Assembly: GCA_964187785.1 (NCBI GenBank)
Contig: OZ076409.1
Coordinates: forward strand, 38,008,001-38,072,000
DNA length: 64,000 bases
Source of the DNA: Amphiscolops sp. MND2022
Lineage: Eukaryota
Direction: 5' to 3'
Shown here: positions 1 to 41,447 of the stretch, in pieces
Layout of the letters: the number at the start of each line of letters is the position of its first letter
How positions within the stretch are numbered: position 1 is the first letter of the stretch
Program-made: the position numbers and the translations under genes
The notes under the pieces: generated by a model
Told to the model about the DNA's origin: nothing
The model's input: the letters and a program-made list of their open reading frames with translations, nothing else
The model's database searches: none

Positions 1-1808
1 CCCTGTAGCATTTGGTGAAAACTTTATATCACCATTCGGTGGACCAGTGGCCCACGTTCACTTTCCAAAAGATGACCCATGTTGCTATCTGTACTGTGTC
101 AGGAGATATACATACCCGAAATGTAGTTACGATGTGACAACATGACTCTCTATAACTCTCGGACTCACCTAAAAATTCTAAATTTTTTCAGAAGCACTCT
201 ACAAGTGTACTAATAAGTTTTTGAGCGTCACCATAGCACACTGACACTTTTTGAACTTATGGTCGAAGACCGTACGGACCGTTGTTGGAGCAGAAATGGG
301 CTTTTTGTAGGTCCGAGTCGTGCAAAAAAATGCTAAATACCTCATCTTGGCCTTTTATTCACGCCATGCAGCACTTATTGAAAACTTTTTATTACCATTC
401 GGTAGACCAGTGGCCCACGTTCATTTTTGAAAAGATGACCCATAATGCTATCTGTACTCTGGCAGGAGATATGCATATCCGAAATGTTATTACGAAGTGA
501 CACCATAACTCTCTATCCCACGTAAAAATTCGAAATTCGTTCAAGAGCTACCTACACTTGTTCTGATGTGTTTTTGGGCGCCACCATGTTACACTGACAA
601 ATTTTGATCTTATGGTACGAGACCGTTCGGACCGTTCCTGAAGAGAAAATCACCATTTTGTGACTCCGAGTCGACATGAAAAATTGAAAAAAACACTTCT
701 GAGAGTTTTTTCTTTGGCAATGGCAACTAGGCTGTGTTTTTTGCATTCAATCGTTAGACCAGTGGCCAATGTTCATTTTCATAAAGATGATCCACAGTGC
801 TAACTGTACTCGGTTATGAGTAACATGATTATGAAATGTTCATACGACGTATTACATCAACTCGGACCGTGACTCAAAAAAATTAAATTTTTTCAGAGGC
901 CCCCCAGAGGTTAACCAATGTCATTTTCGGTAACGCCAAAGCTCACTGACATTGTTTGACCTGGTTGTCGGAGACCGTGCGGACCGTTGCTGGCGAGGAA
1001 TTCATATGTTTGTAAAAATGAGCTGATTTGCAAAAACTCATTCCTCACTATAAGGCATTTTTTGGCACAATCATTGCCCCAGGCCTACTTTGCGATAGTA
1101 CCGTGGGTAGACCCCAGCCCCCTGATATTTTTCATAAATATGACTTCCGCTGCTACTGGTGCTGCGTGGTGAGTAATTGAATGAAAAGTACTGTATAAAA
1201 AATTTCATCATTGCTCATCATGCCATACACCCCAAAAAATCGACTTTTTTATTACGACCACTACAGGTGTCTAAACTATATTTTTGAAACCCTCAATGAA
1301 TGCTAAACATTTTTGACATTATGGTCCGAGACCGTTCGGACCGTTTAACGTACTTAAAATGACCTATAAGTACAGGTGATACTGGTGATACTTTACATTT
1401 TGGCATTTTTTGGCACTTTCAGTGCCACCAGCGGCACTTTTTTGGCACTATCATTTGACGCGCCACATTTCACAACTTTTTGTTAGTATGCATTATTGGG
1501 CTAGCATGCACCGTGTAAAAGTTATTAAAGAAAAACGTTATATCCGAACAAAAATTCGTTATATCCGAACTTTTGTCAAAAACACCATGAAGGACAAGTT
1601 TCTGGGAAAAACGTCAGCAGAAAAAAGTTCTTAGAATTGGGAGAAATGGCCGTATGCAAATTTTCAAGGAATTCTCACGGCTCATTTAAAAAATAACCTT
1701 CCCACGCGTAGGTGTCGGGTAGTATATAGAGATCCTTATATAACGCGCTCGGTCCCGGGTCCCTCCCCGGCCTCGCACATTATTGCAGTGGGACAACACG
1801 TGACCACC
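1..1808. mobile_element. U1: right part of a family-B unit (truncated by window start)
   Basis: Nearly identical to 57622-59430 (end of U18); ends GTGGGACAACACGTGACCACC. Confidence 0.8.
1536..1570. repeat. Subterminal direct repeat CGTTATATCCGAAC x2 (21-bp period) in family-B right ends
   Basis: Also seen at about 17306-17340, 51719-51753 and 59158-59192. Confidence 0.85.
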
Positions 1809-2806
1809 CAGTGGAGGCGAGGTTGTTGCAGTTACACTGCCGAGAAGCGAGGAAAATGTGTATAGAAAGAAAAGAATTTTCAACAATAAAATTTTCGTTT
1901 TACGTTCTGTTGACAAAAGTAGTCTTTGTTGTGTTCAACGTATTTCATATTTGGCATCTCCACGACACGTGGTGCCTTACAATGCTACTTGTCACTTATC
2001 CATCAATCTGCAAGCCAACGCGACGTTCCTGCTGAATAAAAGCGATGTTCTACTTTGACAATTTACACAAAGAAAACTGGAAGAGTTTCAACATTAGAAG
2101 TAATTGTTCATTACAGTGATTAATGCCTTATAATCTCCAATAACACTCCAAATAGTGAACGTAACTGCCTCGTTATGTGGAAATGGGTGGAGAGAATTGT
2201 AAAAAAAGAAAGCTCTGTTGTGACCGAGGTGAGATGCGAAGATGACGGGACTGGCGAATTCCAAATATTGAAATTATTCACAATCGGACAGAAAAATTTT
2301 TGTGGAAGGAATTGACTGCTGGAAATTTTTGAAGTATTTTTGTGTGCCATGTGTTTGCCCAAACAATTTTCAGCTACGATAGATTTATTCCGTAGTTTTG
2401 AACCTTTCCTATCACAAGTGGCTGACTTAAATGCATTAGAAATACATACACTCCAACTCCATTTCCTTTTTTTCGCCCTATGTGACCACTGTGGAAGACA
2501 TCAACGTATGATGTAACGTACTGTCTGGTGGAGGGGTAGAGGATTTCGTGGAACCAATAGGGGTTGCCACTCATTGGTTAGATAAATGTACGTTCCACAT
2601 ACAATTCATATGTTTCAAGTTAGTTTTTATGGTATTTTTAAGCGTCACAAGGAAAGATTTATTTATTGAACACAATGGTGGTCATCGTATAGCGAATAGA
2701 AATGCTCATGTCCTGAAATTATCAATTAATGTGAGAAAGGAAAGTTGAATGAAAGTTTCCCCGCCTATTTTGAGAGTAGAGGAACTCCTGGTTTTTGGTG
2801 TTTAAA

Positions 2807-2853
2807 GTGTTAGCCTTCCAAGTTGGCCGAAGGCCAACTTGGAAGGCTATCAC
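2807..2853. other. Long internal palindrome/hairpin (22-bp stem with one mismatch, GAA loop)
   Basis: GTGTTAGCCTTCCAAGTTGGCC-GAA-GGCCAACTTGGAAGGCTATCAC. Copies or variants at 7704-7750, 13659-13706, 18575-18621, 24521-24567, 29413-29459, 34311-34357, 38596-38643, 48076-48123, 53462-53509 and 60423-60470. Confidence 0.9.
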
Positions 2854-4739
2854 GAAATTTTTATATAAACTCTTTATAAAAATGCAAGATTCAGTTATAA
2901 AGTCTTTATAAAAATGCAAATGAAATCTATATAGTCTGCGAAATCCAAGTACTGAAAAACGTATTGAGAATTTGATTACCTGCTGTGAAGTTGATTCGGT
3001 CTTTGCTAATGTATCTTTTAATGAACATTGCGTTGTAAAACATATGACACTTTTCAGACCTAACAAAGGAGTTTGGAACAACAGAAAGATTGTGCACTTT
3101 GAAAAAGATACACAGTTGATAAACCGTACTAAATTGAACTGCTCATTGATGTTTACACCATCAAATTTTTGAGTTAGAGTGCAAAAAAACCGTGACAAAT
3201 TCTTAGTACTTTGTTAAACTTTGTGTTACACAATGCTTTATGCGCCATATTTTTCCCATACACCCCTGTATGGACCTCATATTCGCAACAATGATACTAT
3301 ATTAATAGTAATTGACGGGAATTAGGTTAGATTGTTATATATTCTGTTTCTATTGTGAAAATGTGTCTTCGAAATTTTCAGTTGAAAGTTGAATTTTTCT
3401 TTGCAAAACGTGTTATCGTGGCTCACATGTCACTAAAGCATTTGATACCAGTCATATATCTCTTTTTCAGTATTTTGGAGGCCACAGGTTACGTCAAACA
3501 CAATAATGTTGTTCAAAACACGAGAAATCAGTTTTCGACCTGACAAAAATTGGGTTATTGGGGAAAAAATTTTTATTGTTACGAACGAATGGGATAAAAA
3601 ATGTGTCCAGACCAAGCATGGTTGTATTATAAACACTTTTAATGACTATAAACGAGTTGTTTGTTGTCAGTGAGGTCGTTGTTGAGCGTTAATACCATAA
3701 CCGACAAGCACCGATTAAAAAACGTGGAATGGAATATGACACATACCATGATTTTTTGAGAAGTTTCTCTTCTTATCAGTACTTTTGACATGTCGAAAGT
3801 CCTTGCATTGATTTTACAAGTCTCATATACATCTTGGTTGAGCCTCGGGTTTAGTTTTAGACCAAAAACAGTGTTGGTAGGACCGCTGATACCAAAAAAG
3901 TGGTGACACAACCGGAAAAATTCCAATGTTTAAGTCATATGTCTATTCAGTATGATATTTTTATGTACCTCAGATTCTGAAAAAGTAGCATGAAACTACT
4001 GTAGACCGTATTTTCCTAAGTAACAGTGCCACTGAGTTGCACTAAAAGCCTATAGTTGCTGCAGAAGCTCCAATTTGTCATTTCGAGTCCACCAAAAATG
4101 TGATGTTGTATCAATTTTCAACAAAATTTGCTATCGATTAGCGAATATTGTGGCACATGACTACTCGAAGTAAGGTCCTTGTGCCTTGTCAATGCCCAGT
4201 TGTATTTTTCACAAGCCACTGGGCCAAGAGAAGTGGATATTTGATGGTTGTCGGCTAAAAATGGCGTTCCTATACTTCAAAAAATGATTTGGAAAGCAAT
4301 TTCATCTTGGAATTTTGTTTGTCAACGAGGCTTTTGTACCTCAAAATTGCACTATAACCATTGTGGAAGGTCAAAATAGGTTCGACGTCAGCAGTACACT
4401 TGGTTGTGAACAAAAAAGAGTCTTGATTGACTGAAAAAGAACTTTAGCTGTTTTTGACTCAACCCATGAATCGATATGTAAGGTACGATTTTCTGTAATG
4501 TAACGTCTAATGGCAGCTGATTTTTTCGACATAACTCCAAATCCACAGTGAGCACTTTTTTCACGTTATTCACACCCCGTGTTATGCAAAAGTACATTTT
4601 AGATGGCTACTGGGCTTTAAAAACAGTTTTTGGGCACTCAAAAACATGATTTTGGAGAGAAAAAAACACGGTTCCCAATGTAATATGTAACATAGTCTGC
4701 ACGAAAACACTAAATTTTTACAGAATCATCCCACAAGTA

Positions 4740-5890
4740 AACTGATGGGTTTTTGAGCGTCACCATAGCCCACAAAAAATTTTCGACCCATTGAGTGGAG
4801 ACCGTAGAGACCGTTGTTGGCGAGCAAATGAGCTTTTTGTAAGTCCGAGTCGCCTGAAAAAATGCTATGTAACCCATGTAAGCACTTTTATCACTCCCTG
4901 TAGCAACTGGTGAAAACTTTTTATCACCATTTGGTAGGCCAGTGGCCGACGTTCACTTTCCAAGAGATGACCCATGTTGGTATCTGTACTCTGTCAGGAG
5001 ATATACATTCCCGAAATGTAGTTTCGATGTGACAACATAACTCTCTATAACTCTCGGACTCACCTAAAAAATCCAAAATTTTTCGGAAGCACTCTACAAG
5101 TGTACTGGTGGGTTTTTGGGCGTCACCATAGCACACTGACACTTTTTGACCTTATGGTCGAAGACCGTACAAACCGTTGGTGCAGCAGAAATAGGCCTTT
5201 TGTAGGTCCGAGTCGTGCAAAAAAATGCTAAATACCCCATATTGGCATATTATTCACGCCGTGCAGCAGTGACTGAAAACTTTTTCTAACCAATCGATAG
5301 ACCAGTGGCCCACGTTCTTTTTCGAAAAGGTGACCCATGATGCTATCTGTACTCTGTGAGGAGATATGCATACCCGAAATGTAGTTACGATGTGACACTA
5401 TAACTCTCGGACCCACGTGAAAATTCGAAAATCGTTCAGACGCTTCCTACCAGTGTTCTGATGTGTTTTTGGGCGCCACCATGTCACACTGACAAATTTT
5501 TATCTTATGGTACCAGACCGTTCGGACCGTTGCTGAAGAGAAAATCACATTTTTGTAACTGCGAGTCGACATGAAAAATTGAAAACAACACTTCTGAAAA
5601 TTTTTTTCTTTCACTATGGCAGCTAAGGTATATTTTTTGCACTCAATCGTTAGACCGCTGCCCAACGTTCATTTTGATAAAGATGACCCACGGTGCTATC
5701 TGTACTCGGTTATGAGTAACATGATTATGAAATGTTGATACAACGTAACAGATCAACTCGCACCGTGACTCAAAAAAATCAAATTTTTCCAGAGGCCTCT
5801 TAGAGGTCAACCGATGTCATTTTGGTCGTCACCATAACTCACTGACACTTTTTCACCTTATGGTCCGAGACCGTGCGGACCGTTCCTCCT
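4740..5890. repeat. Diverged internal ~353-363 bp tandem subrepeat of the 4.9-kb units
   Basis: Motif ATGGTC-N3-GACCGT-N3-GACCGTT (variable) recurs at 4800, 5163, 5516 and 5869, with shared blocks such as CCAGTGGCCCACGTTC and TGCTATCTGTACTC; same in U1 at 268, 621, 973 and 1330, and in all A/B units. Confidence 0.9.
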
Positions 5891-6707
5891 GGTCAAATCA
5901 TCAATTTTGTAATGGTGATACTGTTGGAAAAAATCATTTGGCACTTTTGGCCACTTTGATTGGGCCCGAGGGGAAAATTTTTTTGGACCGTTCGGTAGAC
6001 CGTTGGCCGTTGATGATTTTGCAAAATGTGCACATTGGCGGTATCTGCGTTGCTTCATGCTGAAAATGGACTCTGAATATGTGAGTGATAAATCACGTTG
6101 AATCAAAAAACCCGAAACATTGCAAATATAGGTTGAAGATGCAATTTTTCGGAAAAACGTCAGAAGAAAAAAGTTCTTAAAATTTGTTTTACTACCTGTG
6201 TGCCAAGTTTCAACGCAATCCGCGGACTTTTTGATTTTTGTCATTTTTGAAACAAATGTTGGCCAAATGTGTGCAAATTTTCGTATTCGTTAAATTTTCC
6301 GCCAATATTATCCGCCATATCTCCACTCCTGTTGCGAATTAAGAAATAATTTTTGGCATGTGTAAGCATGACATCATTTATGCCTCGCACGCAAAAAATG
6401 GGCCAAATGCATAGCGTAAAGTGTGGAGCTACTACGTGAAAAATGCGAAAAATGGCCAAAAAACACGATCATTTGCACATAACTTTTCAACAAATGTTTC
6501 AATCATGATACGTCAGGGGAAAAAAGTTCTTAGAATTTGATTTCATGTATGTGTGCAAAGTTTCATGGAAATCTAACGGTTAGATTGGAAAATCGCTTGT
6601 TTTTCTCCCGGTCTACCATGGATGCATTTTGTATATAGCGCTCGGCTCCGGGACCCTCCCCAGGCCTCGCAATGACTATTGTGGGGCAAATTAAGCCCCG
6701 GACCACC

Positions 6708-9700
6708 CAGTGGAGGCGAGGTTGTTGCAGTTACACTGCCGAGAAGCGAGGAAAATGTGTATAGAAAGATAAGAGTTTTCAACAATAAAATTTTCGTTTT
6801 CCGTTCTCTTGACAAAAGTAGTCTTTGTAGTGTTCAACGTATTTCATATTTGGCATCTCCACGACACGTGGTGCCTTACAATGCTACTTGTCACTTATTA
6901 TCCATCAATCTGCAAGCCAACGCGACGTTCCTGCTGAATAAAAGCGATGTTCTACTATAACAATTTACAAAGAAAAGTGGAAGAGTTTCAACATTAGAAG
7001 TAATTGTTCATTACAGTGATTAATGCCTTATAATCTCCAATAACACTCCAAATAGTGAACGTAAGTGCCTCGTTATGTAGAAATGGGTGGAGAGAATTGT
7101 AGAAAAGAAAGCTCAGTTGTGACCGAGCTGAGATGCGAAGATGACGGGACTGGCGAATTCCAAATATTGAAATTATTCACAATCGGACAGAAAAGTTTTT
7201 GTGGAAGGAATTGACTGCTGGAAATTTTTGAAGTATTTTTGTGTGCCATGTGTTTGCCCCAATAATTTTCAGCTACGATAGATTTATTCCGTAGTTTTGA
7301 ACCTTTCCTATCACAAGTGGCTGACTTAAATGCATTAGAAATATATACACTCCAACTCCATTTTTTTTTTTGCCCTATGTCACCACTGTGGAAGGCATCA
7401 ACGTATGATGTAACGAACTGTCTGGTGGAGGGGTAGAGGATTTCGTGGAACCAATAGGGGTAGCAACTCATTGGTTAGATAATTGTACGTTCCACATACA
7501 ATTCATATGTTTCAAGTTAGTTTTTATGGTATTTTTGAGCGTCACAAGGAAAGATTTATTTATTGAACACAATGGTGGTCATCGTATAGCGGATAGAAAA
7601 GCTCATGTCCTGAATTTATCAAGTAAGGTGAGAAAAGAAAGTTCAATGAAAGGTTCCCCGCATATTTTGAGATTAGAGGAACTCCTGGTTTTTGGTGTTT
7701 GTAGTGTTAGCCTTCCAAGTTGGCCGAAGGCCAACTTGGAAGGCTATCACGAATTTTTTTTATAAACTCTTTATAAAAATGCAAGATTCAGTTATAAAGT
7801 CTTTATAAAAATGCAAATGAAATCTATATAGTCTGCGAAATCCAAGTACTGAAAGACGTATTGAGAATTTGATTACCTGCTGTGAAGTTGATTCAGTCTT
7901 TGCTAATGTATCTTTTAATGAACATTGCGTTGTAAAACATATGACACTTTTCAGCCCAAACAAAGGAGTTTGGAACAACAGAAAGATCGTGCACTTTGAA
8001 TAAGATACACAGTTGATGAACCGTACTAAATTGAACTGCTCATTGATGTTTACACCATCAAATTTTTGAGTTAGAGTGCAAAAAAACCGTGACAAATTCT
8101 TAGTACTTTGGTAAATTTTGTGTTACACAATGCTTTATGCGCCATATTTTTCCCATACACACCTGTATGGACCTCATATTCGCAACAATGATACTCTATT
8201 AATAGTAATTGACGGGAATTAGGTTAGATTGTTATATATTCTGTTTCTATTGTGAAAATGTGTCTTCGAAATTTTCAGTTGAAAGTTGAATTTTTCTTTG
8301 CAAAACGTGTTATCGTGGCTCACATGTCACTGAAGCATTTGATACCAGTCATATATCTCCTTTTCAGTATTTTGGAGGCCACAGGTTACGTCAGACACAA
8401 AAATGTTGTTCAAAACACGTGAAATCAGTTTTCGACCTGACAAAAATTGGGTTATTGGGGAAAAAATTTTTATTGTTACAAACGAATGGGATAAAAAATG
8501 TGTCCAGACCAAGCATGGTTGTATTATAAACACTTTTAATGACTATAAACGAGTTGTTTGTTGTCAGTGAGGTCGTTGTTGAGCGTTAATACCATAACCG
8601 ACAAGCACCGATTAAAAAACGTGGAATGGAATATGACACATATCATGATTTTTTGAGAAGTTTCTCTTCTTATCAGTACTTTTGACATGTCGAAAGTCCT
8701 TGCATTGATTTTACAAGTCTGATATACATCTTGGTTGAGCCTCGGGTTTAGTTTTAGACCAAAAACAGTGTTGGTAGGACCGCTGATACCAAAAAAGTGG
8801 TGACACAACCGGAAAAATTCCAATGTTTAAGTCATATGTCTATTCAGTATGATATTTTTATGTACCTCAGATTCTGAAAAAGTAGCATGAAACTACTGTA
8901 GACCGTATTTTCCTAAGTAACAGTGCCACTGAGTTGCACTAAAAGCCTATAGTTGCTGCAGAAGCTCCAATTTGTCATTTCGAGTCCACCAAAAATGTGA
9001 TGTTGTATCAATTTTCAACAAAATTTGCTATCGATTAGCGAATATTGTGGCACATGACTACTCGAAGTAAGGTCCTTGTGCCTTGTCAATGCCCAGTTGT
9101 ATTTTTCACAAGCCACTGGGCCAAGAGAAGTGGATATTTGATGGTTGTCGGCTAAAAATGGCGTTCCTATACTTCAAAAAATGATTTGGAAAGCAATTTC
9201 ATCTTGGAATTTTGTTTGTCAACGAGGCTTTTGTACCTCAAAATTGCACTATAACCATTGTGGAAGGTCAAAATAGGTTCGACGTCAGCAGTACACTTGG
9301 TTGTGAACAAAAAAGAGTCTTGATTGACTGAAAAAGCAGTTTAGCTATTTTTGACTCAACCCATGAACCGATATGTAAGGTACGATTTTCTGTAATGTAA
9401 CGTCTAATGGCAGCTGATTTTTTCGACATAACTCCAAATCCACAGTGAGCACTTTCTTCACGTTACTCACACCCCATGTTATGCAAAAGTACATTTTAGA
9501 TGGCTACTGGGCTTTAAAAACAGTTTTTGGGCACTCAAAAACATGATTTTGGAGAGAAAAAAAACACGGTTCCCAATGTAATATGTAACATAGTCTGCAC
9601 GAAAACACTAAATTTTTACAGAATCATCCCACAAGTAAACTGATGGGTTTTTGAGCGTCACCATAGCCCACAAAAAATTTTCGACCCATTGAGTGGAGAC

Positions 9701-11601
9701 CGTACAGACCGTTGTTCGCGAGCAAATGAGCTTTTTGTAAGTCCGAGTCGCCTGAAAAAATGCTATGTAACCCATGTAAGCATTTTTATCACTCCCTGTA
9801 GCAACTGGTGAAAACTTTTTATCACCATTCGGTAGGCCAGTGGCCCACGTTCACTTTCCAAAAGATAACCCATTTTGGTATCTGTACTGTGTCAGGAGAT
9901 ATACATTCCCGAAATGTAGTTACGATGTGACAACATAACTCTCTATAAGTCTCGGACTCACCTAAAAAATCCAAAATTTTTCGGAAGCACTCTACAAGTG
10001 TACTGGTGGGTTTTTGGGCGTCACCATAGCACACTGACACTTTTTCACCTTATGGTCGAAGACCGTACGGACCGTTGGTGGAGCAGAAATGGGCCTTTTG
10101 TAGGTCCGAGTCGTGCAAAAAAATGCTAAATACCCCATCTTGGCATAATATTCACGCCGTGCAGCAGTAATTGAAAACTTTTTATAACCAATCGATAGAC
10201 CAGTGGCCCACGTTCTTTTTCGAAAATGTGACCCATGATGCTATCTGTACTATGTGAGGAGATATGCATACCCGAAATGTAGTTACGATGTGACACTATA
10301 ACTCTCGGACCCACGCAAAAATTCGAAATTCGTTCAGAAGCCTACTACCAGTGTTCTGATGTGTTTTTGGGCGCCACCATGTCACACTGACAAATTTTGA
10401 TCTTATTGATCGAGACCGTTCGGACCGTTCCTGAAGAGAAAATCACATTTTTGTAACTCCGAGTCGACATGAAAAATTGAAAACAACATTTCTGAAAACT
10501 TTTTTCTTTCACTATGGCAACTAAGGTATATTTTTTGCACTCAATCGTTAGACCGCTGCCCAATGTTCATTTTGATAAAGATGACCGACGGTGCTATCTG
10601 TACTCGGTTATGAGTAACATGATTATGAAATGTTGATACAACGTAACGGATCAACTCGGACCGCGACTCAAAAAAATCAAATTTTTCCAGAGGCATCTTA
10701 GAGGTCAACCAATGTCACTTTGGTCGTCACCATAACTCACTGACACTTTTTCACCTTATGGTCCGAGACCGTGCGGACCGTTCCTCCTGGTCAAATCATC
10801 AATTTTGTAATGGTGATACTGTTGGAAAAAACCTTTTGCCACTTTTGGCCACTTTGATTGGGCCCGAGGGGAAAATTTTTTTGGACCGTTCGGTAGACCG
10901 TTGGCCGTTGATGATTTTGCAATATGTGCACATTGCCGGTATCTGCGTTGCTTCATGCTGAAAATGGACTTTGAATATGTGAGTGATAAATCACCTTGAA
11001 TCAAAAAACCCGAAATATTGCAAATATAGGTTCAAGATGCAATTTTTCGGAAAAACGTCAGGAGAAAAAAGTTCTTAGAATTTGTTGTACTACCTGTGTG
11101 CCAAGTTTCAACGCAATCCGCGGACTTTTTAATTTTTCTCATTTTTCAAACAAATGTTGGCCAAATATGTGCAAATTTTCGTAAATATTGAATTTTCCGC
11201 CAATATTATCCGCCATATCTCCACTCCTGTTGCGAATTGAGAAATAATTTTTGGCATGTGCAAACATGACATCATTTATGCCTCGCACGCAAAAAATGGG
11301 CCAAATGCATAGCGTAAAGTGTGGAGCTGCTGCGTGAAAAATGCGAAAAATGGCCAAAAAACACGATCATTTGCACATAACTTTTCAACAAATGTTTCAA
11401 TCATGATACGTCAGGGGAAAAAAGTTCTTAGAATTTGATTTTATGTATGTGTGCAAAGTTTCATGGAAATCTAACGGTTAGATTGGAAAATCGCTTGTTT
11501 TTCTCCCGGTCTACCATGGATGCATTTTGTATATAGCGCTCGGCTCCGGGACCCTCCCCAGGCCTCGCAATGGTACGTGTGGGGGACCACCCCGGACCAC
11601 C
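6708..11601. mobile_element. U3: family A1 unit, 4,894 bp
   Basis: Near-identical to U2/U6; ends GGGGGACCACCCCGGACCACC. Confidence 0.8.
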
Positions 11602-12672
11602 TAGCGATGGAGCGATTTAGAGCACTGCTAGTAAAAGGCCTAAACTTAACAGCGCAACCTTTGCTAATGGAGTATGAAAAAGAAATATTTAGGCTAGCAA
11701 TTTTTTGTAAGTTATTCTGGGATTGAACGATAAATATCATCACCCTGACGAGTGAATGTCTATGGTGACTGCCGTCAACTTAACTCAAGGGATTTTGTGG
11801 TTTTTTGCTTTCTAAGCAAGCACCGTTGTTCCTGCGAGATGCTGCGCAACTCTCGGAACACCGGTGACAATAAATTTTGCTGATCGATTTGCAATAACCA
11901 AATTCATCACTTTGAGGCATTTTTTGGCACAACTTATGCCCTAGGGCTATTTTGCTCGATACAGAGGGTAAACCCCAGCCCCATAATCAGTTTCAAGTTT
12001 GCTGCAGCTGCTTCCTGTGCTGCATCATATCCAACTGAAAGTGATACAATTATTTCTCATCCAATCACTCATAATGACATATACCCCAAAAAATCAACTT
12101 TTTTCTGATGTCTCCTACAGATGAACGAATTACAAATTTGGAACCCCCATTGGATGCTGACAATTTTTGACCTTATTGTCCGAGACCGTGCGGACCGTTC
12201 CGGCTGCTCAAATCATCAATTTGATCAAAGTGATTCAGTCAAAAAAATAATTTTGGCACTTTTCGGCACTTTGGTTTCCCCCGGGGGGAAATTTTTTCGG
12301 ACCGTTCGAAAGACCGTTGACCGTTGATGATTTTCATAAAAGTGCACTTTGCCGCTACGGGCTTTCCTTCATGGTGAAAATGGCCTTTGATTCGGTCATT
12401 GATTAATCAAAGATGAAAAAAGATGAAAAAAACCAAAAAAACGCAAAAAAACCCTACAAAATGAATTTTCCTGGAAAAACGTCAGCAGAAAAAAATTCTT
12501 AAATTTTTGAGATAAAGCCACATGCAAAGTTTCAGACAAATCCTACGGGTGAATTTCGAGATCGGTTAAAATACTTCGCAATCCTGAAGGTAGGAATTGA
12601 TAGAATGTGCTCGGCTCTCGGGACCCTCCCCGGCCTCGCAATATTTTCTGATGGGCATCCCCCTTGACCACC
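11602..12672. mobile_element. U4: family C short unit, 1,071 bp
   Basis: Starts TAGCGATGGAGCGATTTAGAGCAC, ends GGGCATCCCCCTTGACCACC; near-identical to U14 and U16. Confidence 0.8.
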
Positions 12673-15600
12673 CAGCGGAGGTAATTAGAGCACGACTAGA
12701 GGGGAAAAGGCCTAAACATAAGAAGGGTGAAACGTGTGGTAATGAAGATTGAAATGTTTTGTTGTACTTCCTGCTTCCTTCTTGGTTCAATTTGTCAGGG
12801 AAACATTGATAAACTTCATAGCAACCATGATACAGAATTGACAACAGTGAATGCCGTTGATACTAGATAAGGTATCCTGAAATTTACGAGAAGTACTTTT
12901 CAAGCAGGCACCGTTGAGTCTGCAAGATGCTGCGAACCTCGAAGCACCGCTGATAATGACATCAGTGACAATGAAATTTTGCTACATATAAATTTGTCGC
13001 AATTACTCAACAATGTGTTGAAATCCTTAGTAATATTTAGATAGAAAGTGGCGGTAAATGAGGTGGTTACGATTGGATGCAAACTCTTCAGTGAAACTCA
13101 GATGACATTCCAGAAGACATAAAAATGTTCAATGACCATTTGAAAGTACATTGCAAACGAACAAAAAATTATAAAAAATGTTGCTTTGTAACAACTTTTG
13201 ATGACTTTTTGTGTTATGCGGAACAATTATTTTGGGTAAACAAGTTTTAAAGGAACAAAACGTTTTCCACTATGATTGCTGACTTTAAAAGATTTTAAAT
13301 TCTGACACTCTACTCGGGTTTTTGGCTCTATGTTACGAATAAAGGAAGCTTCCAATGGAAAATGTAAGCTATTGTCAAGTGGAGGAGATAAGAGGTTCCC
13401 GATGCGACTATAAGGAATGAAAATGTCCTTTATCAGGACGTTTCAAGTAAAATTCATTGATTTTCAGTAGTTTGTTTGCGGTATTTTTCGAAAGACAAAG
13501 AAAAAATGTAGTCTTTGTGAAGTTTATGGTGATAATCATATACGGAAAGAACTTGTAAACTAATTAACATTTTTCAACTGAAGACTGGATTAAAGGCTGA
13601 ACAATATGGTCTACAGCCAAAGTGAAAGAACAGAAATTCTTGCTTTTTGTTGTTTGTAGTGATAGCCTTCCCAAGTTGACACAAGGCCAACTTGAAAGGC
13701 TATCACAAGATTCAGTTATCAGCTGATTCCAAAAATACATGGTCCAATATCAAGCGTAATATAAGAAAAACGTCATCAATGTGAGTAGGTTTTCAAATCT
13801 TTACAGTCTGAGAAATTCAAGTCCTGAGAGACCTATCGGCAATTTGGTTAGCTATCATATAGATGAATGAGTATTTGCTAATACATCTATTAATGAATAT
13901 TACGTTTTGAAAATAGTCTGACTATATTCAGCTGTAACAAAGGAGTTTGGAACAACGGAAAGATCGAGCTCATTGACACATATGCAGACTTGACTAATTT
14001 TACTGAATTGAAGTGCTGATTGATGTTTTAAATGTTAACTTTTCGATATAAATGGCAAAAAATTTAGTGAAAATTTTTTAGTAATATGGTAAGTTTTGTG
14101 TTACTCAATGCTTTATGCACCACAGTTTTCATATACACCCCTCTATAGACGTCATATTCGCAAGACTGATGCTATATTAATAGCCTTTGACGGGAAACAA
14201 ATAAGTTTTTCAATTATTCTCCTTTTATTGTGAAAATGAGTCTTCGAAATTTTGACTTCAAAGAAGAATTTTTCTTTGCGAAACGTGTTATCGCGGCTCA
14301 CATGTCACTCAAACATTTGATACCAGTCATACTTTGGTATTTGAGTATTTTGGGGGCCACAGGTTACGTCAGATACAAAAATGTTGTTCAAAAGACAAAA
14401 ATTCAAATTTCGACCTGTCAAAAATTGGGTGTTAGGGGAAAAATTTTTACATGTTAAGAACGAACACTGTGGAAAATGTGTCAAGAACGAGGAAACAGGT
14501 ATTGTAAACACTTTTAATAACGGTAATCAACTTGTTTGCTGTCAGTGAGTTTGTTGTTGGGCGTTAATACCTTAACCGACAAGCACCGAATAAAAATGGT
14601 GGAATGGAATATGACATATAACAAGAGTTTTTGGATAATATCTCCTCTCATCACTACTTTTGACATGTCGAAAGTCCTTGTATTGTTTTTACAAGTCTGG
14701 CATCCACTTTGATTGATCCTTAGGTTTCATGTTTGACCAAAACAAGTGTTAGTAGGACCGCCGATACCGAAAAAAAGGTGACACATCCGGAAAAATGACG
14801 AGTTTGAAGTAATATCTCTATTCAGTATGATATTTTTAGGTACCTCAGAATCTCAAAAAGTACCTTGAAACTACTGTAAGCATCATTTCCCTAAACTAAA
14901 ATGCCCGTGGGTTGCACTAGTAGCCAATAGGTGCTGCTGAGCTCCATTTTGTCAATTCGAGTCCACCAAAAATGTGATGTTGTATCAGTTTTCGACGAAA
15001 TTTGCTATCGATTAGTAAATGTTGTTGCCCATGACTACTCGCATTCAAGTCCATGTGCCTTGTCAACGCCCAGTTGTTTTTTTCACATGCCAATCGACTA
15101 AAAGAAATGGATAGTTGATGTATTTGGGCAAAAATGTGCGGTCCTATACTCCAAATAATGATTTGGAAACAAATATTATCTTGGCATTTTGTTAGGCAAG
15201 GGGGTTTTTGTCACTCAAAATCAGAATATAACCATTGTGAAAGGTCAATATGTGTTCCACGTCAGCTGTACACTTTGTTGTGAACAAAACAGTGTCTTGA
15301 TTGACTGAAAAAGCAGCTTAGCTATTTTTGACTCAATCCATATATGGATATGTAAGGTATCATTTTCTGTAATGTAACGTCTAATGGCAGCTGATTTTTT
15401 TGAAATGACTCCAAACCCACAGTGAGCACTTTCTTTACGTTATTCACATCCCATGTTATGCAAAAGAACATTTTACGTGGCTACTGGGCTTTAAAAACGG
15501 TTTTTGGGCACTCAAAATCATGATTTTGGTGTTATGAAAACACGGTTCCCAATGTAATGTGTAACATAGTGAGCACGAAAAAATTAAATTTTCACAGAAT

Positions 15601-17578
15601 TATCCAACAAGTAAACTGATATGTTTTTGGGCGTCACCATAGCTCACGAAAATTTTTCGACCTCATGGACAGAGACCGTACAGACCGTTGTTCGCGAGCA
15701 AACGACCTTTTTGTAAGTCCGAGTCGCCAGAAAAAATGCTATGTAACCCATGTAAGCACTTTTACCACTACCTGTAGCAACTGGTGAAAACTTTTTATCA
15801 CCATTCGGTAGGCCAGTGGGCCACGTTTACTTTCCAAAAGATGACCCATGTTGCTATCTGTACTCTTTCAGGAGATATACATACCCGAAATGTAGTTACG
15901 ATGTGACAACATAACTCTCAAAACCTCTCGGACTCACCTAAAAATACCAAATTTTTTCAGAAGCACTCTACAAGTGTACTGATGGGTTTTTGGGCGTCAC
16001 CATAGGACACTGTCACTTTTTGAGCTTATGGTTGAAGGCCGTGGGGACCGTTGGTGGAGCACAAATGAGCTTTTTGTAAGTCCGAGTCGTGCAAAAAAAT
16101 GCTAAATACAACATCTTGGTATATTTTTCACGCCATGCTGCTCTTATTGAAAACTTTTTACAACCACTCGATAGACCAGTGGCCCACGTTCATTTTCAAA
16201 AAGGTGACCCATGATGGTATCTGTACTCTGGCAGGAGATATGCATACCCGAAATGTTGTTACGATGTGACACCATAACTCTCTGACCCACGTGAAAATTC
16301 GAAATTTGTTCAGAAGCTACCTACACGTGTTCTGATAGGTTTTTGGACGCCACCATGTTACACTGACGAAATTTGACCTTATGGTCTGAGACCGTGCAGA
16401 CCGTTCCTGTGGAGCAAATCACCATTTTGTGACTCCGAGTCGACATAAAAAATTGAAAATACCACTTCTTGGAATTTTTTTCTTTCACAATGGCAACTAG
16501 GCTATGTTTTTTGCACTCAATCGTTAGACCACTGGCCAATGTTCATTTTCATAAAGTTGACCTACGGTGCTATGTGTACTCGGTTATGAGTAATATGATT
16601 ATGAAATGTTCATACGACGTATACCATCAACTCGGACCGCGACTCAAAAAATTAATTTTTTTTCAGAGGCCCCCCAGAGTTTATTCAATGTCATTTTTCA
16701 TGTCACCTTAGCTCACTGACAATTTTTGGTTATATTGTCGGAGACCGTGCGGACCGTTGTTGACGAGGAATTCACATGTTTCGAAACATGAGCTGATTTT
16801 CAAGAAATCATTCCTCACTATAAGGCATTTTTTGGCACAATCATTGCTCCAGGCATACTTTGCGGTAGTACCGTGGAGAGACCCCAGCCCCCTGATCTTT
16901 TTCATATATATGACTTACGCTGCTACTGGTGCTGCGTGTTGAGCAATTGTATGAAAAGTACTGTATAAAAAATTTCATCATTGCTCATCATGCCATACAC
17001 CCCAAAAAATCGACTTTTTTATTACGACCCCTACAGGTGTGAAAACTATGTTTTTGAAACCCTCATTGAATGCTGACAATTTGTGGTCTTATGGTCCGAG
17101 ACCGTTCGGACCGTTTAACATGCTTAAAATGACCTATAAGTACAGGTGATATTGGTGATACTTCACATTTCGGCATTTTTCGGCACTTTAAGTGCCTCCA
17201 GCGGCACTTTTTTGGCACCATCATTTGCATCGTCGCATTTCACAACTTTAGGTTAGTATGCATCATTGGGCTAGCGTGCACCGTGTAAAAGTTATTAAAG
17301 AAAAACGTTATATCCGAACAAAAATTCGTTATATCCGAACTTTTGTCAAAAACACCATGAAGGACAAGTTTCTGGGAAAAACGTCAGCAGAAAAAAGTTC
17401 TTAGAATTGGGAGAAATGGCCGTATGCAAAGTTTCAAGGAATTCTCACGGCTCATTTCGAAAATAACCTTCCCACGCGTAGTTGTCGGGTAGTATATAGA
17501 GATCCTTATATAACGCGCTCGGTCCCGGGTCCCTCCCCGGCCTCGCACATTATTGCAGTGGGACAACACGTGACCACC
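12673..17578. mobile_element. U5: family B unit, 4,906 bp
   Basis: Starts CAGCGGAGGTAATTAGAGCAC; shares the central core with family A but has a different left ~0.6 kb and the U1-type right end. Confidence 0.8.
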
Positions 17579-20500
17579 CAGTGGAGGCGAGGTTGTTGCA
17601 GTTACACTGCCGAGAAGCGAGGAAAATGTGTATAGAAAGATGAGAATTTTCAACAATAAAATTTTCGTTTTCCGTTCTGTTGACAAAAGTAGTCTTTGTT
17701 GTGTTCAACGTATTTCATACTTGGCATCTCCACGACACGTGGTGCCTTACAATGGTACTTGTCACTTATTATCCATCAATCTGCAAGCCAACGCGACGTT
17801 CCTGCTGCATAAAAGCGATGTTCTACTTTAACAATTTACAAAGAAAAGTGGAAGAGTTTCAACATTAGAAGTAATTGTTCATTACAGTGATTAATGCCTT
17901 ATAATCTCCAATAACACTCCAAATAGTGAACGTAACTGCCTCGTTATGTGGAAATGGGTGGAGAGAATTGTAAAAAAGAAAGCTCTGTTGTGACCGAGCT
18001 GAGATGCGAAGATGACGGGACAGGCGAATTCCAAATATTGAAATTATTCACAATGGGACAGAAAAATTTTTGTGGAAGGAATTGACTGCTGGAAATTTTT
18101 GAAGTATTTTTGTGTGCCATGTGTTTGCCCAAATAATTTTCAGCTAGGATAGATTTATTCCGTAGTTTTGAACCTTTCCTATCACAAGTGGCTGACTTAA
18201 ATGCATTAGAAATACATACACTCCAACTCCATTTCCTTTTTTTGCCCTATGTCACCACTGTGGAAGACATCAACGTATGATGTAACGTACTGTCTGGTGG
18301 AGGGGTAGAGGATTTCGTGGAACCAATAGGAATAGCCACTCATTGGTTAGATAAATGTACGTTCCACTTACAATTCATATGTTTCAAGTTAGTTTTTATG
18401 GTATATTTAAGCGTCACAAGGAAAGATTTTTTTTAGAACACAATGGTGGTCATCGTATAGCGAATAGAAATGCTCAAAACCTGACTTTATCAATTAACGT
18501 AAGAAAAGAAAGTTCAATGAAAGTTTCCCCGCCTATTTTGAGATTAAAGGAACTCCTGGTTTTTGGTGTTTGTAGTGTTAGCCTTCCAAGTTGGCCGAAG
18601 GCCAACTTGGAAGGCTATCACGAAAGTTTTTTATAAACTCTTTATAAAAATGCAAGATTCAGTTATAAAGTCTTTATAAAAATGCAAATGAAATCTATAT
18701 AGTCTGCGAAATCCAAGTACTGAAAGACGTATTGAGAATTTGATTACCTGCTGTGAAGTTGATTCGGTCTTTGCTAATGTATCTTTTAATGAACATTGCG
18801 TTGTAAAACATATGACACTTTTCAGCCCTAACAAAGGAGTTTGGAACAACAGAAAGATCGTGCACTTTGAAAAAGATACACAGTTGATAAACCGTACCTA
18901 ATTGAACTGCTCATTGATGTTTACACCATCAATTTTTTGAGTTAGAGTGCAAAAAAAAACGTGACAAATTCTTAGTACTTTGGTAAACTTTGTGTTACAC
19001 AATGCTTTATGCGCCATATTTTTTCCATACACCCCTGTATGGACCTCATATTCGCAACAATGATACTAGATTAATAGTAATTGACGGGAAATAGGTTAGA
19101 TTGTTATATATTCTGTTTCTATTGTGAAAATGTGTCTTCGAAATTTTCAGTTGAATGTTGAATTTTTCTTTGCAAAACGTGTTATCGTGGCTCACATGTC
19201 ACTGAAGCATTTGATACCAGTCATATATCACTTTTTCAGTAATTTGGAGGCCACAGGTTACGTCAGACACAATAATGTTGTTCAAAACACGAGAAATCAG
19301 TTTTCGACCTGACAAAAATTGGGTTATTGGGGAAAAAATTTTCATTGTTACGAACGAATGGGATAAAAAATGTGTCCAGACCAAACATGGTTGTATTATA
19401 AACACTTTTAATGACTATAAACGAGTTGTTTGTTGTCAGTGAGGTCGTTGTTGAGCGTTAATACCATAACCGACAAGCACCGATTAAAAAACGTGGAATG
19501 GAATATGACACATAACATGATTTTTTGAGAAGTTTCTCTTCTTATCAGTACTTTTGACATGTCGAAAGTCCTTGCATTGATTTTACAAGTCTGATATACA
19601 TTTTGGTTGAGTCTCGGGTTTAGTTTTAGACCAAAAACAGTGTTGGTAGGACCGCTGATACCAAAAAAGTGGTGACACAACCGGAAAAATTCCAATGTTT
19701 AAGTCATATGTCTATTCAGTATGATATTTTTATGTACCTCAGATTCTGAAAAAGTAGCATGAAACTACTGTAGACCGTATTTTCCTAAATAACAGTGCCA
19801 CTGAGTTGCACTAAAAGCCTATAGTTGCTGCAGAAGCTCCAATTTGTCATTTCGAGTCCACCAAAAATGTGATGTTGTATCAATTTTCAACAAAATTTGC
19901 TATCGATTAGCAAATATTGTGGCACATGACTACTCGAAGTAAGGTCCTTGTGCCTTGTCAATGCCCAGTTGTATTTTTCACAAGCCACTGGGCCAAGAGA
20001 AGTGGATATTTGATGGTTGTCGGCTAAAAATGGCGTTCCTATACTTCAAAAAATGATTTGGAAAGCAATTTCATCTTGGAATTTTGTTTGTCAACGAGGC
20101 TTTCGTACCTCAAAATTGCACTATAACCATTGTGGAAGGTCAAAACAGGTTCGACGTCAGCAGTACACTTGGTTGTGAACAAAAAAGAGTTTTGATTGAC
20201 TGAAAAAGAACTTTAGTTGTTTTTGACTCAACCCATGAATCGATATGTAAGGTACGATTTTCTGTAATGTAACGTCTAATGGCAGCTGATTTTTTCGACA
20301 TAACTCCAAATCCACAGTGAGCACTTTCTTCACGTTACTCACACCCCATGTTATGCAAAAGTACATTTTAGATGGCTACTGGGCTTTAAAAACAGTTTTT
20401 GGGCACTCAAAAACATGATTTTGGAGAGAAAAAAACACGGTTCCCAATGTAATATGTAACATAGTCTGCACGAAAACACTAAATTTTTACAGAATCATCC

Positions 20501-22476
20501 CACAAGTAAACCGATGGGTTTTTGAGCGTCACCATAGCCCACAAAAAATTTTCGACCCATTGAGTGGAGACCGTACAGACCGTTGTTCGCGAGCAAATGA
20601 GCTTTTTGTAAGTCCGAGTCGCCTGAAAAAATGCTATGTAACCCATGTAAGCATTTTTATCACTCCCTGTAGCAACTGGTGAAAACTTTTTATCACCATT
20701 CGGTAGGCCAGTGGCCCACGTTCACTTTCCAAAAGATAACCCATTTTGGTATCTGTACTGTGTCAGGAGATATACATTCCCGAAATGTAGTTACGATGTG
20801 ACAACATAACTCTCTATAACTCTCGGACTCACCTAAAAATTCCAAAATTTTTCGGAAGCACTCTACAAGTGTACTGGTGGGTTTTTGGGCGTCACCATAG
20901 CACACTGACACTTTTTCACCTTATGGTCGAAGACCGTACGGACCGTTGGTGGAGCAGAAATGGGCCTTTTGTAGGTCCGAGTCGTGCAAAAAAATGCTAA
21001 ATACCCCATCTTGGCATAATATTCACGCCGTGCAGCAGTAATTGAAAAGTTTTTATAACCAATCGATAGACCAGTGGCCCACGTTCTTTTTCGAAAATGT
21101 GACCCATGATGCTATCTGTACTCTGTGAGGAGATATGCATACCCGAAATGTAGTTACGATGTGACACTATAACTCTCGGACCCACGCAAAAATTCGAAAT
21201 TCGTTCAGAAGCCTACTACCAGTGTTCTGATGTGTTTTTGGGCGCCACCATGTCACACTGACACATTTTTATCTTATTGACCGAGACCGTTCGGACCGTT
21301 CCTGAAGAGAAAATCACATTTTTGTAACTCCGAGTCGACATGAAAAATTGAAAACAACATTTCTGAAAATTTTTTTCTTTCACTATGGCAACTAAGGTAT
21401 ATTTTTTGCACTCAATCGTTAGACCGCTGCCCAATGTTCATTTTGATAAAGATGACCGACGGTGCTATCTGTACTCGGTTATGAGTAACATGATTATGAA
21501 ATGTTGATACAACGTAACGGATCAACTCGGACCGCGACTCAAAAAAATCAAATTTTTCCAGAGGCATCTTAGAGGTCAACCAATGTCATTTTGGTCGTCA
21601 CCATAACTCATTGACACTTTTTCACCTTATGGTCCGAGACCGTGCGGACCGTTCCTCCTGGTCAAATCATCAATTTTGTAATGGTGATACTGTTGGAAAA
21701 AACCTTTTGCCACTTTTGGCCACTTTGATTGGGCCCGAGGGGAAAATTTTTTTGGACCGTTCGGTAGACCGTTGGCCGTTGATGATTTTGCAATATGTGC
21801 ACATTGCCGGTATCTGCGTTGCTTCATGCTGAAAATGGACTTTGAATATATGAGTGATAAATCACCTTGAATCAAAAAACCCGAAATATTGCAAATATAG
21901 GTTCAAGATGCAATTTTTCGGAAAAATGTCAGGAGAAAAAAGTTCTTAAAATTTGTTCTACTACCTGTGTGCCAAGTTTCAACGCAATCCGCGGACTTTT
22001 TAATTTTTCTCATTTTTCAAACAAATGTTGGCCAAATATGTGCAAATTTTCGTAAATATTGAATTTTCCGCCAATATTATCCGCCATATCTCCACTCCTG
22101 TTGCGAATTGAGAAATAATTTTTGGCATGTGCAAACATGACATCATTTATGCCTCGCACGCAAAAAATGGGCCAAATGCATAGCGTAAAGTGTGGAGCTG
22201 CTGCGTGAAAAATGCGAAAAATGGCCAAAAAACACGATCATTTGCACATAACTTTTCAACAAATGTTTCAATCATGATACGTCAGGGAAAAAAAGTTCTT
22301 ATAATTTGATTTTATGTATGTGTGCAAAGTTTCATGGAAATCTAACGGTTAGATTGGAAAATCGCTTGTTTTTCTCCCGGTCTACCATGGATGCATTTTG
22401 TATATAGCGCTCGGCTCCGGGACCCTCCCCAGGCCTCGCAATGACTACTGTGGGGCAAATTAAGCCCCGGACCACC
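17579..22476. mobile_element. U6: family A1 unit, 4,898 bp
   Basis: Colinear and near-identical with U2/U3. Confidence 0.8.
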
Positions 22477-23524
22477 CAGTGGTGGCAAAGGTACCTTTTG
22501 CAAGCACTGGCCGTTATCTATTCACTGGAAATAGAGTTGCGGTGAATTGAAAATTACATTTGTACAACTCTCATTTTGAATTGTTTTGTTTATACATTGT
22601 TTTTCACTATAACCGATTTCATATGTAACTGCAGAGTCACTTTTGCAGAAAAAGGGACTACAAGCGTTCGCTGCGGGTCACCTCTGTTCCTGCGTGCAGC
22701 TCCGCATCACTCGGAACACAGGTGACACTGTGTTTTTAGAGACCAAATTGCGATAAGTTTATATTTGTTTCCCAAAAACTGAAACCTGATTACTTCGTGA
22801 TCCCGGGTAACAAACGAATGATATGATTAATACAATGCAAAATAAACCTGTTTTGAACACAGGGACGGTAAAAACAATGTCATTATTGCATTCCTGAGAA
22901 AAAATTACGCTGGATTTGACAAAAAAATTTTTTTGAAAAAATTCTAAATTTTTAGAATTTTTGTAGAACTTTTGTAGAACTTTTTTATTTTTTATTTTTT
23001 ATCCTGGCCACGTGATGTTGAAAACACATCGACTGTACTGCTACCGCTAAAGAAAACATCATCTGTATAAAAGTTCGGAAATTATGACGCAATGTAAGGA
23101 AAATTCACAATTTTCTGTTACTTCGTTCACTTCTATCTCTCAGCCTAGTATCACCAGCCTAATGATTTTTGACATGCAAACACCTAACATCATTTATGCC
23201 TCGCATGCAAAGTATCAGCCAATTGTATCCACATGCTGCACATATCGCAGCGAAAAAGTACCGAAATGGGGTGAAAAACCCGATCATTTGATCATAACTT
23301 CCCGCCAAGTAATAGGATCATGTTTGACCAGCAGAACATCAGTCATACATCGGCAAGATAAGTACACATGCAAAGTTTCAAGAAGTTTTATCGGTTCAAT
23401 TCGAAAATCGCCGTTTTTTGACTGGTGTGCTAAAGGATATAGTACGACACGCGAAAATTAAGCTCGGCATCGGGACCCTCCCCGGCCTCGCACTAAATAA
23501 TGTGGGGAACTACCCCGGACCACC
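22477..23524. mobile_element. U7: family E short unit (single copy here), 1,048 bp
   Basis: Starts CAGTGGTGGCAAAGGTACC, ends GGGGAACTACCCCGGACCACC; mostly unique, but shares a hairpin with family C (22677-22726) and the last module with family A (about 23188-23400). Confidence 0.75.
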
Positions 23525-40185: not shown

Positions 40186-41116
40186 TAGCCGCTACCGCCG
40201 TAAAGACGGCGGGCATGGCTCCATTTGCCATACGTCGTCGAAGGGCATGCCTCGGCATGCCCACAGACTGTGGGCGTCGGAACGCTATGTGGCGTTGTAC
40301 TAATGGAGACATGTGATATGGTAACGGATATGTGTATTGGTTGAAATAGTAGTGAGAAGAACAAAAGACTTCATCAAACTCAATGAAATATAAAAATCTT
40401 ATACGGTTGTTTATTCAAAATTCTAAACACGTGTTAAGATAGTTAATTTCGTCGGGAGTGTGATCTTTCGATGACATTTATTTAGCAAACGTAACTTCAC
40501 GTCATCTCTGAGAAGGGGATAGAATGCAGGTACTCAACGACATTTTAAAAAAACCAAAAAACAAAAGACTTGTGTGTAAATTCTATCATAACAACTCGAA
40601 TACCCCTCGACATATACACTAAGCGAACGCCACCAAGGGACACCACACATACATGTTCCAAACAAGCCTACTGTCCTTTCTGAACGCTTTCCACGGCGTT
40701 ATTCATATAAAATGTACTTGTTTTGTACTATTGTATTCACATATCAAACTATTCTCAAATGATCATTACTCAACCTCATGTTAGGATAAAGGAGAGTTTT
40801 ACACGTTATTTACCTCATCTAATAAGGTGCATTTCGCAGTCATTCACTTGCTATCTTAGTTATGTGGACGTTTCATCATTTCGGAAGGCCGGAAAATTAT
40901 GAACAAAGTAGTAAACGTTTTCAGTCATGCCTTTGATCACTGGGTAAAACAATCGATCTTAACTCCGGTAAAAGAGTCGAATGGTTTTGTTCAGCAGAAA
41001 TAGAAGCTGAAGTAAAGACTCATGTATGTACCAGAAACAATTTTATTCCTTCTTCGTTTCAGGAGTTACATACAAAGTTACAAAAGTTTGAATGTTGGAC
41101 GTATTTGGCTTCTCGA

Positions 41117-41159
41117 AAGTACATTCTCATCTCCCCCGATGGGGAGATGGAATGTACTT
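41117..41159. other. Long palindrome in U12 (19-bp stem, one bulged T)
   Basis: AAGTACATTC-T-CATCTCCCC-CGAT-GGGGAGATG-GAATGTACTT. Confidence 0.85.
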
Positions 41160-41447
41160 AAGTGTTTCTTGTTATCTGATGGTTAAGATTGGACATATTC
41201 AATTGAGATTTCGATGAAACTAAGGTTCTATTTACGTATCATCACACCTGAACCTTTTAGGAAGCTCACATTCAAAACATCTATTAAATTAATAATCGGT
41301 AATATTAAAAAAATGAACAGGGTATATATCTGAAATGATTCGCTTCTTATATGGAACATGATTATTATTTATGGTATGGAATTCTTGCCAAAAAAGACGT
41401 TTTTTATTATAACCCAAACGATTGGCAGTACCTGGTTTGGTATCATA

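Follow-up and report, generated by a model that had tools for sequence, protein, structure and literature searches.

One-way arrays of a divergent Helitron-like family in Amphiscolops sp., with conserved hairpins at the probable 5' end of the units

The 64,000-nt stretch of DNA analysed here (the window; C1:38,008,001-38,072,000) is a head-to-tail array with 18 junctions of the form CCACC|YAG, between which lie 17 complete units of 1.05-4.9 kb from six families (Table 1). No RepHel remnant was found in these 17 units, and an Rfam scan of the 64-kb window gave zero matches. The array to which the window belongs spans ~37.909-38.173 Mb if continuous. The hairpins that a sequence-only reading had quoted next to the junctions are all present as written, with GGGGC-AAATTAA-GCCCC at 6683-6699, the box GGGACCCTCCCC at 6650-6661 and CCACC at 6703-6707; its second stem, ACGGCCGGC..GCCGGCCGT, is confirmed at 44885-44914 as the 9-bp inner stem of unit 12 (folding z -2.8/-3.1). 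The box is found at 18/18 window junctions and in a distant relative. The final 600 bp of unit 7 have 87-89% identity to the hairpin end of two autonomous elements. Internal tandem repeats of 363 bp and 336 bp occur in non-autonomous units (window positions 16-673, 26425-27416, 31309-32312, 41448-42714, 57430-58294 and 62332-63329). One lineage keeps CGTCGTCGAA followed by a perfect hairpin, GGGCATGCC-TC-GGCATGCCC, ~35-65 nt from the 3' end (38234-38275, 40228-40270 and 53100-53140).

Table 1. Units of the array and parts of the hairpin end of unit 2, in window positions.
Feature	Positions	Strand	Family	Description
Unit 1 (partial)	1..1808	-	A	non-autonomous
Unit 2	1809..6707	-	B	4,899 bp, non-autonomous, internal 363-bp repeats
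Conserved 5' end of unit 2	6640..6707	-		GTG start, terminal hairpin, spacer, inner stem around box
Inner stem	6640..6670	-		arms 6640-6646 and 6664-6670, five Watson-Crick pairs around tandem GA/GA (TC/TC on +)
Conserved box	6650..6661	-		GGG-KA-GGG-H-CC on coding strand
Terminal hairpin	6683..6699	-		5 bp, 7-nt loop, 7 nt from end
CTGG	6707..6710	-		3' terminal CTNG of neighbouring unit, same form as target site
Unit 3	6708..11601	-	B	4,894 bp
Unit 4	11602..12672	-	C	1,071 bp
Unit 5	12673..17578	-	A	4,906 bp
Unit 6	17579..22476	-	B	4,898 bp
Unit 7	22477..23524	-	D	1,048 bp
Unit 8	23525..28417	-	B, subfamily 2	4,893 bp
Unit 9	28418..33313	-	B, subfamily 2	4,896 bp
Unit 10	33314..38207	-	B	4,894 bp
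Unit 11	38208..40185	-	F	1,978 bp
Unit 12	40186..44945	-	G	4,760 bp, internal 336-bp tandem repeat
Unit 13	44946..46015	-	C	1,070 bp
Unit 14	46016..47095	-	C	1,080 bp
Unit 15	47096..51992	-	A	4,897 bp
Unit 16	51993..53061	-	C	1,069 bp
Unit 17	53062..55050	-	F	1,989 bp
Unit 18	55051..59430	-	A (shorter)	4,380 bp
Unit 19 (partial)	59431..64000	-	A	

Read on the coding strand, units have the form GTG...CTNG. The 5' GTG is found in 272/272 distinct units and the 3' terminus is CTAG in 243, CTGG in 24 and CTTG in 5, counts in which the first letter alone of the N-A-G demanded by the junction finder was free. Elements insert after CTNG, without target-site duplication. The base that follows CCACC tracks the downstream unit and not the upstream one (family C precedes both CAG and TAG), so the boundary lies at or just before that base; the nick may fall after CTNG or one base earlier, the sequence being compatible with both. 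Where a purine comes next, 24/26 family ends continue with AG, which the pattern did not demand; these 26 are what is left of 89 rows after exclusion of 32 internal matches of one family, 27 related-family rows with constant following bases, 3 unrelated rows and 1 mutated end. G follows CTA in 9/10 edge copies, scored by eye among 100 of the 190 matches, a noisy set. In twelve solo copies with unrelated flanks at CTNG, both ends are present and no duplication is seen; the script took the nearest CNAG, hence these copies do not bear on the C. No true empty allele was seen; the satellite register runs on across the C1:3.48-3.64 Mb array. This array (C1:3.484-3.637 Mb; L032:4120-4130, L037:882) appears embedded in a short satellite-like repeat at the CATCC|CAG position, and its first unit seems to contain copies of the surrounding repeat. 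tRNA genes were considered as target and rejected, there being no tRNA in 20 loci. No telomere repeat occurs at any junction shown, and a CCAA end is absent from the ends and flanks examined. Just right of the window (C1:38,074,440; L049:2440-2517), a unique 79-nt spacer separates two units, with the CTNG rule at both borders. Two origins come into question, host DNA lying between neighbouring insertions or capture of a flank; a search for the source matched only the spacer itself, which leaves transduction without support.

A broad pattern of the hairpin end has 5,439 matches in the 1.07-Gb genome (4 for the reversed-pattern control) and a further pattern has 1,998 (control 0). Clusters contain 97 of the first 100 of the 5,439 ends. 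Junctions are present in 15/15 10-kb samples over C1:70.50-76.41 Mb, 74 in total and in one orientation, and in 0/5 samples outside; the edges of this array of ~6 Mb lie near 70.455 and 76.47 Mb. Arrays were also met in 5/5 samples at C2:102.7-103.9 Mb and 3/3 samples at C3:2.9-3.7 Mb, with no junction in samples at C2:101.8, 102.0 and 102.3 Mb and C3:2.2 and 2.5 Mb. In a 195-kb part of the C1 array, 104 units, all on one strand, group into 29 families at 80%. Elsewhere on C1, an array flips strand around a 200-N gap (23.975-23.985 Mb; L042), perhaps because of an inversion or an error of assembly. Long ORFs adjoining two array edges resemble Bel/Pao retrotransposons by eye (L040:2-6382, L048:3067-8167). 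A related family at C6:14.33-14.37 Mb (L246, L247), which is also dispersed, has CTTG|GTG joints, a longer end and homogeneous tandem copies spaced 1,252 or 2,577 bp.

Autonomous units of 12-19 kb sit in the same arrays and are bounded by the same junctions, where they fill intervals of 13.7-18.8 kb from one junction to the next. Their ORFs have 2,377-2,853 codons, and three of the units encode Helitron_like_N (HUH Rep) and PIF1 domains with a C-terminal GIY-YIG (Pfam). PF14214 and PF05970 score over the cut-off in the proteins P0001 and P0002, with HUH Rep upstream of PIF1 in one protein, and HUH and YxxKY-type motifs are present in the transposase. A low-confidence model of the Rep region (pLDDT 40) has Helraiser 7LCC as its best fold match (Z 9.4, rmsd 3.1, 161 residues; next Z 5.8, among 48,161 chains). 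Sequence similarity to Helraiser is limited to the helicase (E 7e-7), and the best match of the C-terminal 150 residues is SLX1 (E 1.3e-11). The earlier proposal that the hairpins mark an HUH-type element is thus borne out: autonomous units carrying these ends encode HUH Rep and PIF1. Since units encode these domains and different families, as well as a distant relative, maintain the pairing, the data support the reading that the end is recognised as a folded single strand by the HUH enzyme, as far as sequence can tell. Of 150 scored RepHel matches, 48 fall in frames that stay open over >=2,200 aa, 25 of the 48 in the C1 array. Intact RepHel genes concentrate in arrays, and 14 stretches beside seven dispersed broken copies (L232-L245) have no family junction. 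One RepHel subfamily opens with the word GIESNPGP, which we take to be a 2A-like peptide, and has a weak OTU protease match (L034:342-8789 (-), P0001 residues ~70-360). Two or three extra ORFs lie behind RepHel (L033:2257-3261, 5467-6201, 7321-8169; L035:1219-2235; L043:6223-7389, 8362-9027; all on the - strand). They gave neither a Pfam match nor a usable Atlas match (model pLDDT 33.6), and one of them has a V(I/V)GAS motif common to several lineages.

We favour, as probable, the reading that a divergent family of Helitron-like elements, whose RepHel has an SLX1-like GIY-YIG, carries the hairpins as its conserved 5' end, where they likely serve as a single-stranded origin bound by the transposase, and that the arrays likely grow by insertion at resident junctions. 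We infer homing of units to their own end-to-start junctions as the best account of the mixed megabase arrays. By analogy with Helitron and IS91 biochemistry, the HUH domain would nick the coding strand after CTNG, and the helicase would peel off one strand in which both hairpins could fold, with sheared G.A pairs. A second cut, at the 3' CTNG of the unit, would let this strand circularise, and the circle would then integrate behind a further CTNG. The joint of such a circle has the same form as a resident junction, in which a hairpin end comes after CTNG; the junction could recruit the transposase and be preferred over plain CTNG sites, of which base composition predicts ~2x10^7. The SLX1-like domain would open or resolve a branched intermediate.

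In static sequence, which does not record the order of events, the array pattern fits insertion of single units at junctions rather than rolling-circle multimers or block duplication. Units move singly, because near-identical copies have different neighbours: none of the 26 pairs at >=98% identity among the 104 units is adjacent, and a common pair of neighbours is seen in only 2 of them, a duplicated dimer (units 49-50/68-69). Terminal 30-mers of nearest relatives differ by <1 base on average, so ends travel with unit bodies. The same element and origin end could also build arrays without homing, if read-through or rolling-circle multimers integrated and unequal exchange and gene conversion then shuffled the units. 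We regard this as unlikely, although related families do cluster locally, with 30 same-family neighbours vs 8.2±2.6 expected and 10 repeated family trigrams vs 2.4±1.5; the duplicated dimer and the homogeneous tandem copies on C6 point the same way, as do plant tandem Helitron arrays attributed to rolling-circle amplification (PMC12628747). The plant arrays, however, are described as consisting of truncated copies in which a single 3' end is combined with many 5' ends, whereas units here keep both ends; and the switch between families takes place within a shared word of 4-8 nt, too short for homologous recombination, while 24/26 near-identical pairs have different neighbours. Insertion at junctions nevertheless needs an addition: plain random homing would not yield the same-family clustering, a pattern that could stem from local duplication or from waves of activity, so local hopping, lineage-specific preference or activity waves must be added. 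Duplication contributes in places, as in the homogeneous copies at C6:14.34 Mb. Some 10 pairs of units 96-99.6% identical (L181-L200 and other loci) have the 10-30 nt that adjoin the 3' CTAG swapped for the version of another family, a hint of strand exchange near the target end.

The hairpin end had been read as the right end of the unit. It lies upstream of the RepHel gene, which is on the strand opposite to the one then read, and is therefore the 5' end on the coding strand, an assignment that rests on gene orientation and mismatch asymmetry. On the strand that codes for the transposase, unit 2 thus likely has its origin at 6640-6707. Mismatches were counted in 48 ends at <80% identity drawn from 280 junction ends. 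When one tandem TC/TC is allowed, stems of at least 5 steps rise from 25/48 to 41/48; TC/TC is used in 24/48 inner stems vs 0-2 for seven other dinucleotides. GA/GA, its coding-strand form, can make sheared pairs in DNA. Single mismatches in helices on the + strand are A/C in 15 cases and G/T in 4, many at the same box position, and with the TC/TC counts they would favour the coding strand as the folding strand. The hairpin end might instead be a terminator (a Helitron right end) on the non-coding strand, with the gene reversed and insertion before CNAG, which we judge a little less probable still than integration of multimers. The canonical Helitron hairpin sits near the 3' end (PMC5876387), reversed ORFs are described in Helitron2 and Paramecium elements (PMC3627910, PMC13085455), and the opposite end folds poorly in most families here: 14/40 3' ends have z below -1 in their last 45 nt. 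With a terminator, however, half of the stems would carry TC/TC and A/C mismatches where the coding strand has GA/GA and G/T. The coding strand also folds lower in 38/48 ends, though z-scores are alike (p=0.11), and its 3' CTAG/CTGG fits CTRR. Comparison of end variability between origin and terminator gave p=0.16.

The pairing said to be kept by compensatory change is clearest in the inner stem, where arms of the same end pair over 4.5 bp vs 3.45±0.12 for swapped arms, with 3.94 as the best of 5,000 permutations; before two box assignments were corrected the values were 4.44 and 3.37±0.12, a difference reached by 0/20,000 permutations. As related ends are not independent, the permutation p-values, here and below, are too small. 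One family displays a clean two-sided change, GGATTC/GAATCC to GGAATC/GATTCC. For the terminal hairpin the claim stands in part: in a loose register its pairing exceeds shuffles (3.58 bp vs 3.01±0.13, 48 ends) but is weaker than that of the inner stem, with p=0.052 vs swapped halves. With the register fixed after seeing the data it reaches 3.42 vs 2.67±0.15 (0/20,000 permutations), and it has at least 4 bp in 23-24/48 ends, many of them the invariant GGGG/CCCC. The inner stem at 6640-6670 itself has just 3+2 Watson-Crick pairs flanking the TC/TC mismatch, and from 46 ends aligned with MAFFT, RNAalifold recovers only a 4-bp stem in the box. It is very improbable that the arms are instead double-stranded protein-binding repeats around the box, with no fold and with pairing that comes from palindromic sites. 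Such repeats would suit the six best stems, which are self-complementary words, the direct-repeat matching of arms, raised to 4.44 vs 3.56 because several arms are palindromes, and a whole-end folding energy close to shuffles (z -0.41 for 6640-6707; mean z -0.7/-0.9 for the 48 ends). Complementary arms that are not palindromic argue against them: GGATTC/GAATCC and its variant, GCCAT/ATGGC, GCCGCC/GGCGGC, GCGGGC/GCCCGC and GGGCCAAC/GTTGGCCC. The last pair is a perfect 8-bp stem, different from those above, that encloses the same box in the metagenome contig L224 (z -3.07), whose protein is 33% identical; the contig begins 1.3 kb before its ORF with this stem and provides independent support for kept pairing. 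Viral contigs were also considered as carriers of the element, but they gave three Walker A matches of 26-28 residues and nine pattern matches that by eye are without family stems, all treated as chance.

We give almost no credence to an integron-like cassette array built by a tyrosine recombinase on folded attC-like sites (the sequence-only reading had compared the hairpins with attC): one-way mixed units do meet at a short common word and have folded ends, but the enzyme in the units is an HUH-helicase, no tyrosine recombinase domain is found among 12 ORFs scanned (three autonomous units and flanks), and solo copies lie in unrelated flanks at CTNG.

Among 1.84 billion representatives, 333 proteins match at E <=1e-30, the best 150 of the 333 being mostly 25-38% identical. 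GIY-YIG gives a Pfam match in 11/18 relatives scanned and none in 7/18, and PIF1 + GIY-YIG clusters rank first in the Atlas, where taxa rest on few members. A quick search gave an unrooted Rep+Hel tree with 2 HLE1-type and 5 HLE2-type rows from the genome analysed here, labelled by Pfam only, in which a long branch (SH-aLRT 100) sets apart the 20 family rows, themselves selected for resemblance to the query. HELIANO defines HLE1 and HLE2 and mentions unclassified clusters (PMC11417382). DUF6570 is absent from P0001, P0002, the 18 relatives, L172, L173 and L180, and present in 8/8 in-genome HLE2-type elements scanned; in the HLE1-clade test PF14214 scores 29-40 bits vs 199. The HUH-PIF1 protein and the lack of target duplication place the element in the Helitron-like superfamily. 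By the tests run it would lie outside both HLE1 and HLE2 and probably works like a Helitron with IS91-like site rules.

Canonical Helitrons (HLE1; Helraiser, 7LCC, whose mechanism is described in PMC5876387) share with it the HUH Rep-PIF1 fusion, a 3' CTAG/CTGG that agrees with the CTRR of HLE1, the lack of target duplication and non-autonomous derivatives. Unlike them, it has 5' GTG instead of TC, a CTNG target instead of A|T, conserved hairpins at the 5' end and an SLX1-like domain, and its copies are arrayed in thousands, whereas maize is described as having pairs of different Helitrons head-to-tail (PMC2267711). Likeness to HLE2 (Helitron2, with ends defined by Bao and Jurka, PMC3627910, and Helentron) lies in structured ends with compensatory changes, the OTU-like domain of one subfamily and tandem repeats inside non-autonomous copies; a GIY-YIG has also been captured by one HLE2 family, in Sphagnum (PMC11417382). 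Unlike HLE2, the element has no asymmetric terminal inverted repeats, T|T target, DUF6570 or AP endonuclease, and it is on a separate tree branch. In a search for HLE2-type inverted repeats of 8-15 bp, the longest match averaged 5.8 vs 5.5 in swapped controls (p=0.03), with 8 nt in 4/40 and none longer. Paramecium third-clade Helitrons, as described in PMC13085455, resemble it in their position outside HLE1/HLE2, absolute orientation bias, a terminal word equal to the target and stem-loops with compensatory changes, a likeness based on description, with Paramecium sequences outside the tree. Unlike it, they end in CCAA, insert in telomere repeats and have 9-10-kb ORFs, and 'GIY' is absent from the main text of that paper. 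IS91 has an HUH transposase, no duplication and two subterminal palindromes at the origin, with a CTTG target beside the origin and a CTCG terminus (PMC13181058); given the origin assignment, CTNG is at both target and 3' end here. Unlike the present element, IS91 is a small bacterial element without helicase; the likeness is one of behaviour, and the available text of PMC13181058 describes no IS91 arrays. Self-insertion is known for Fusarium Helitrons (PMC5148889), and Helitrons are among the centromeric repeats of Meloidogyne (PMC13404089); PMC6431247 and the centromere atlas preprint contributed no specific point. In the full-text literature available no description was found of a RepHel-SLX1 lineage or of such arrays; an earlier description is possible.

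Target choice by Helitrons is an open question, and their specificity is held to be little beyond a dinucleotide. This lineage offers a natural, testable case of strong target choice, in which hundreds of natural end variants define the structure of the origin and dozens of transposase genes are intact. It links eukaryotic Helitron ends to the tetranucleotide rules of IS91-type elements and suggests a way for non-satellite repeat domains of megabase size to arise from transposons alone, as well as a possible site-directed single-strand integrase. Finders keyed to TC...CTRR or to inverted repeats would miss such elements. We put forward tentatively, with doubts that slightly outweigh our confidence, that the family represents an undescribed and widespread third Helitron lineage, with an SLX1-like nuclease, a folded origin with sheared G.A pairs and site-specific integration at its own junctions, whose dozens of families share multi-megabase arrays that shelter intact copies and possibly form chromosomal domains (centromere-like or silencing loci). 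The distant relatives P0038, P0040, P0043, P0050, P0058, P0066, P0079 and P0145 are found on contigs whose 9-19 kb is roughly the length of a single element, which is what assemblies broken at array joints would give.
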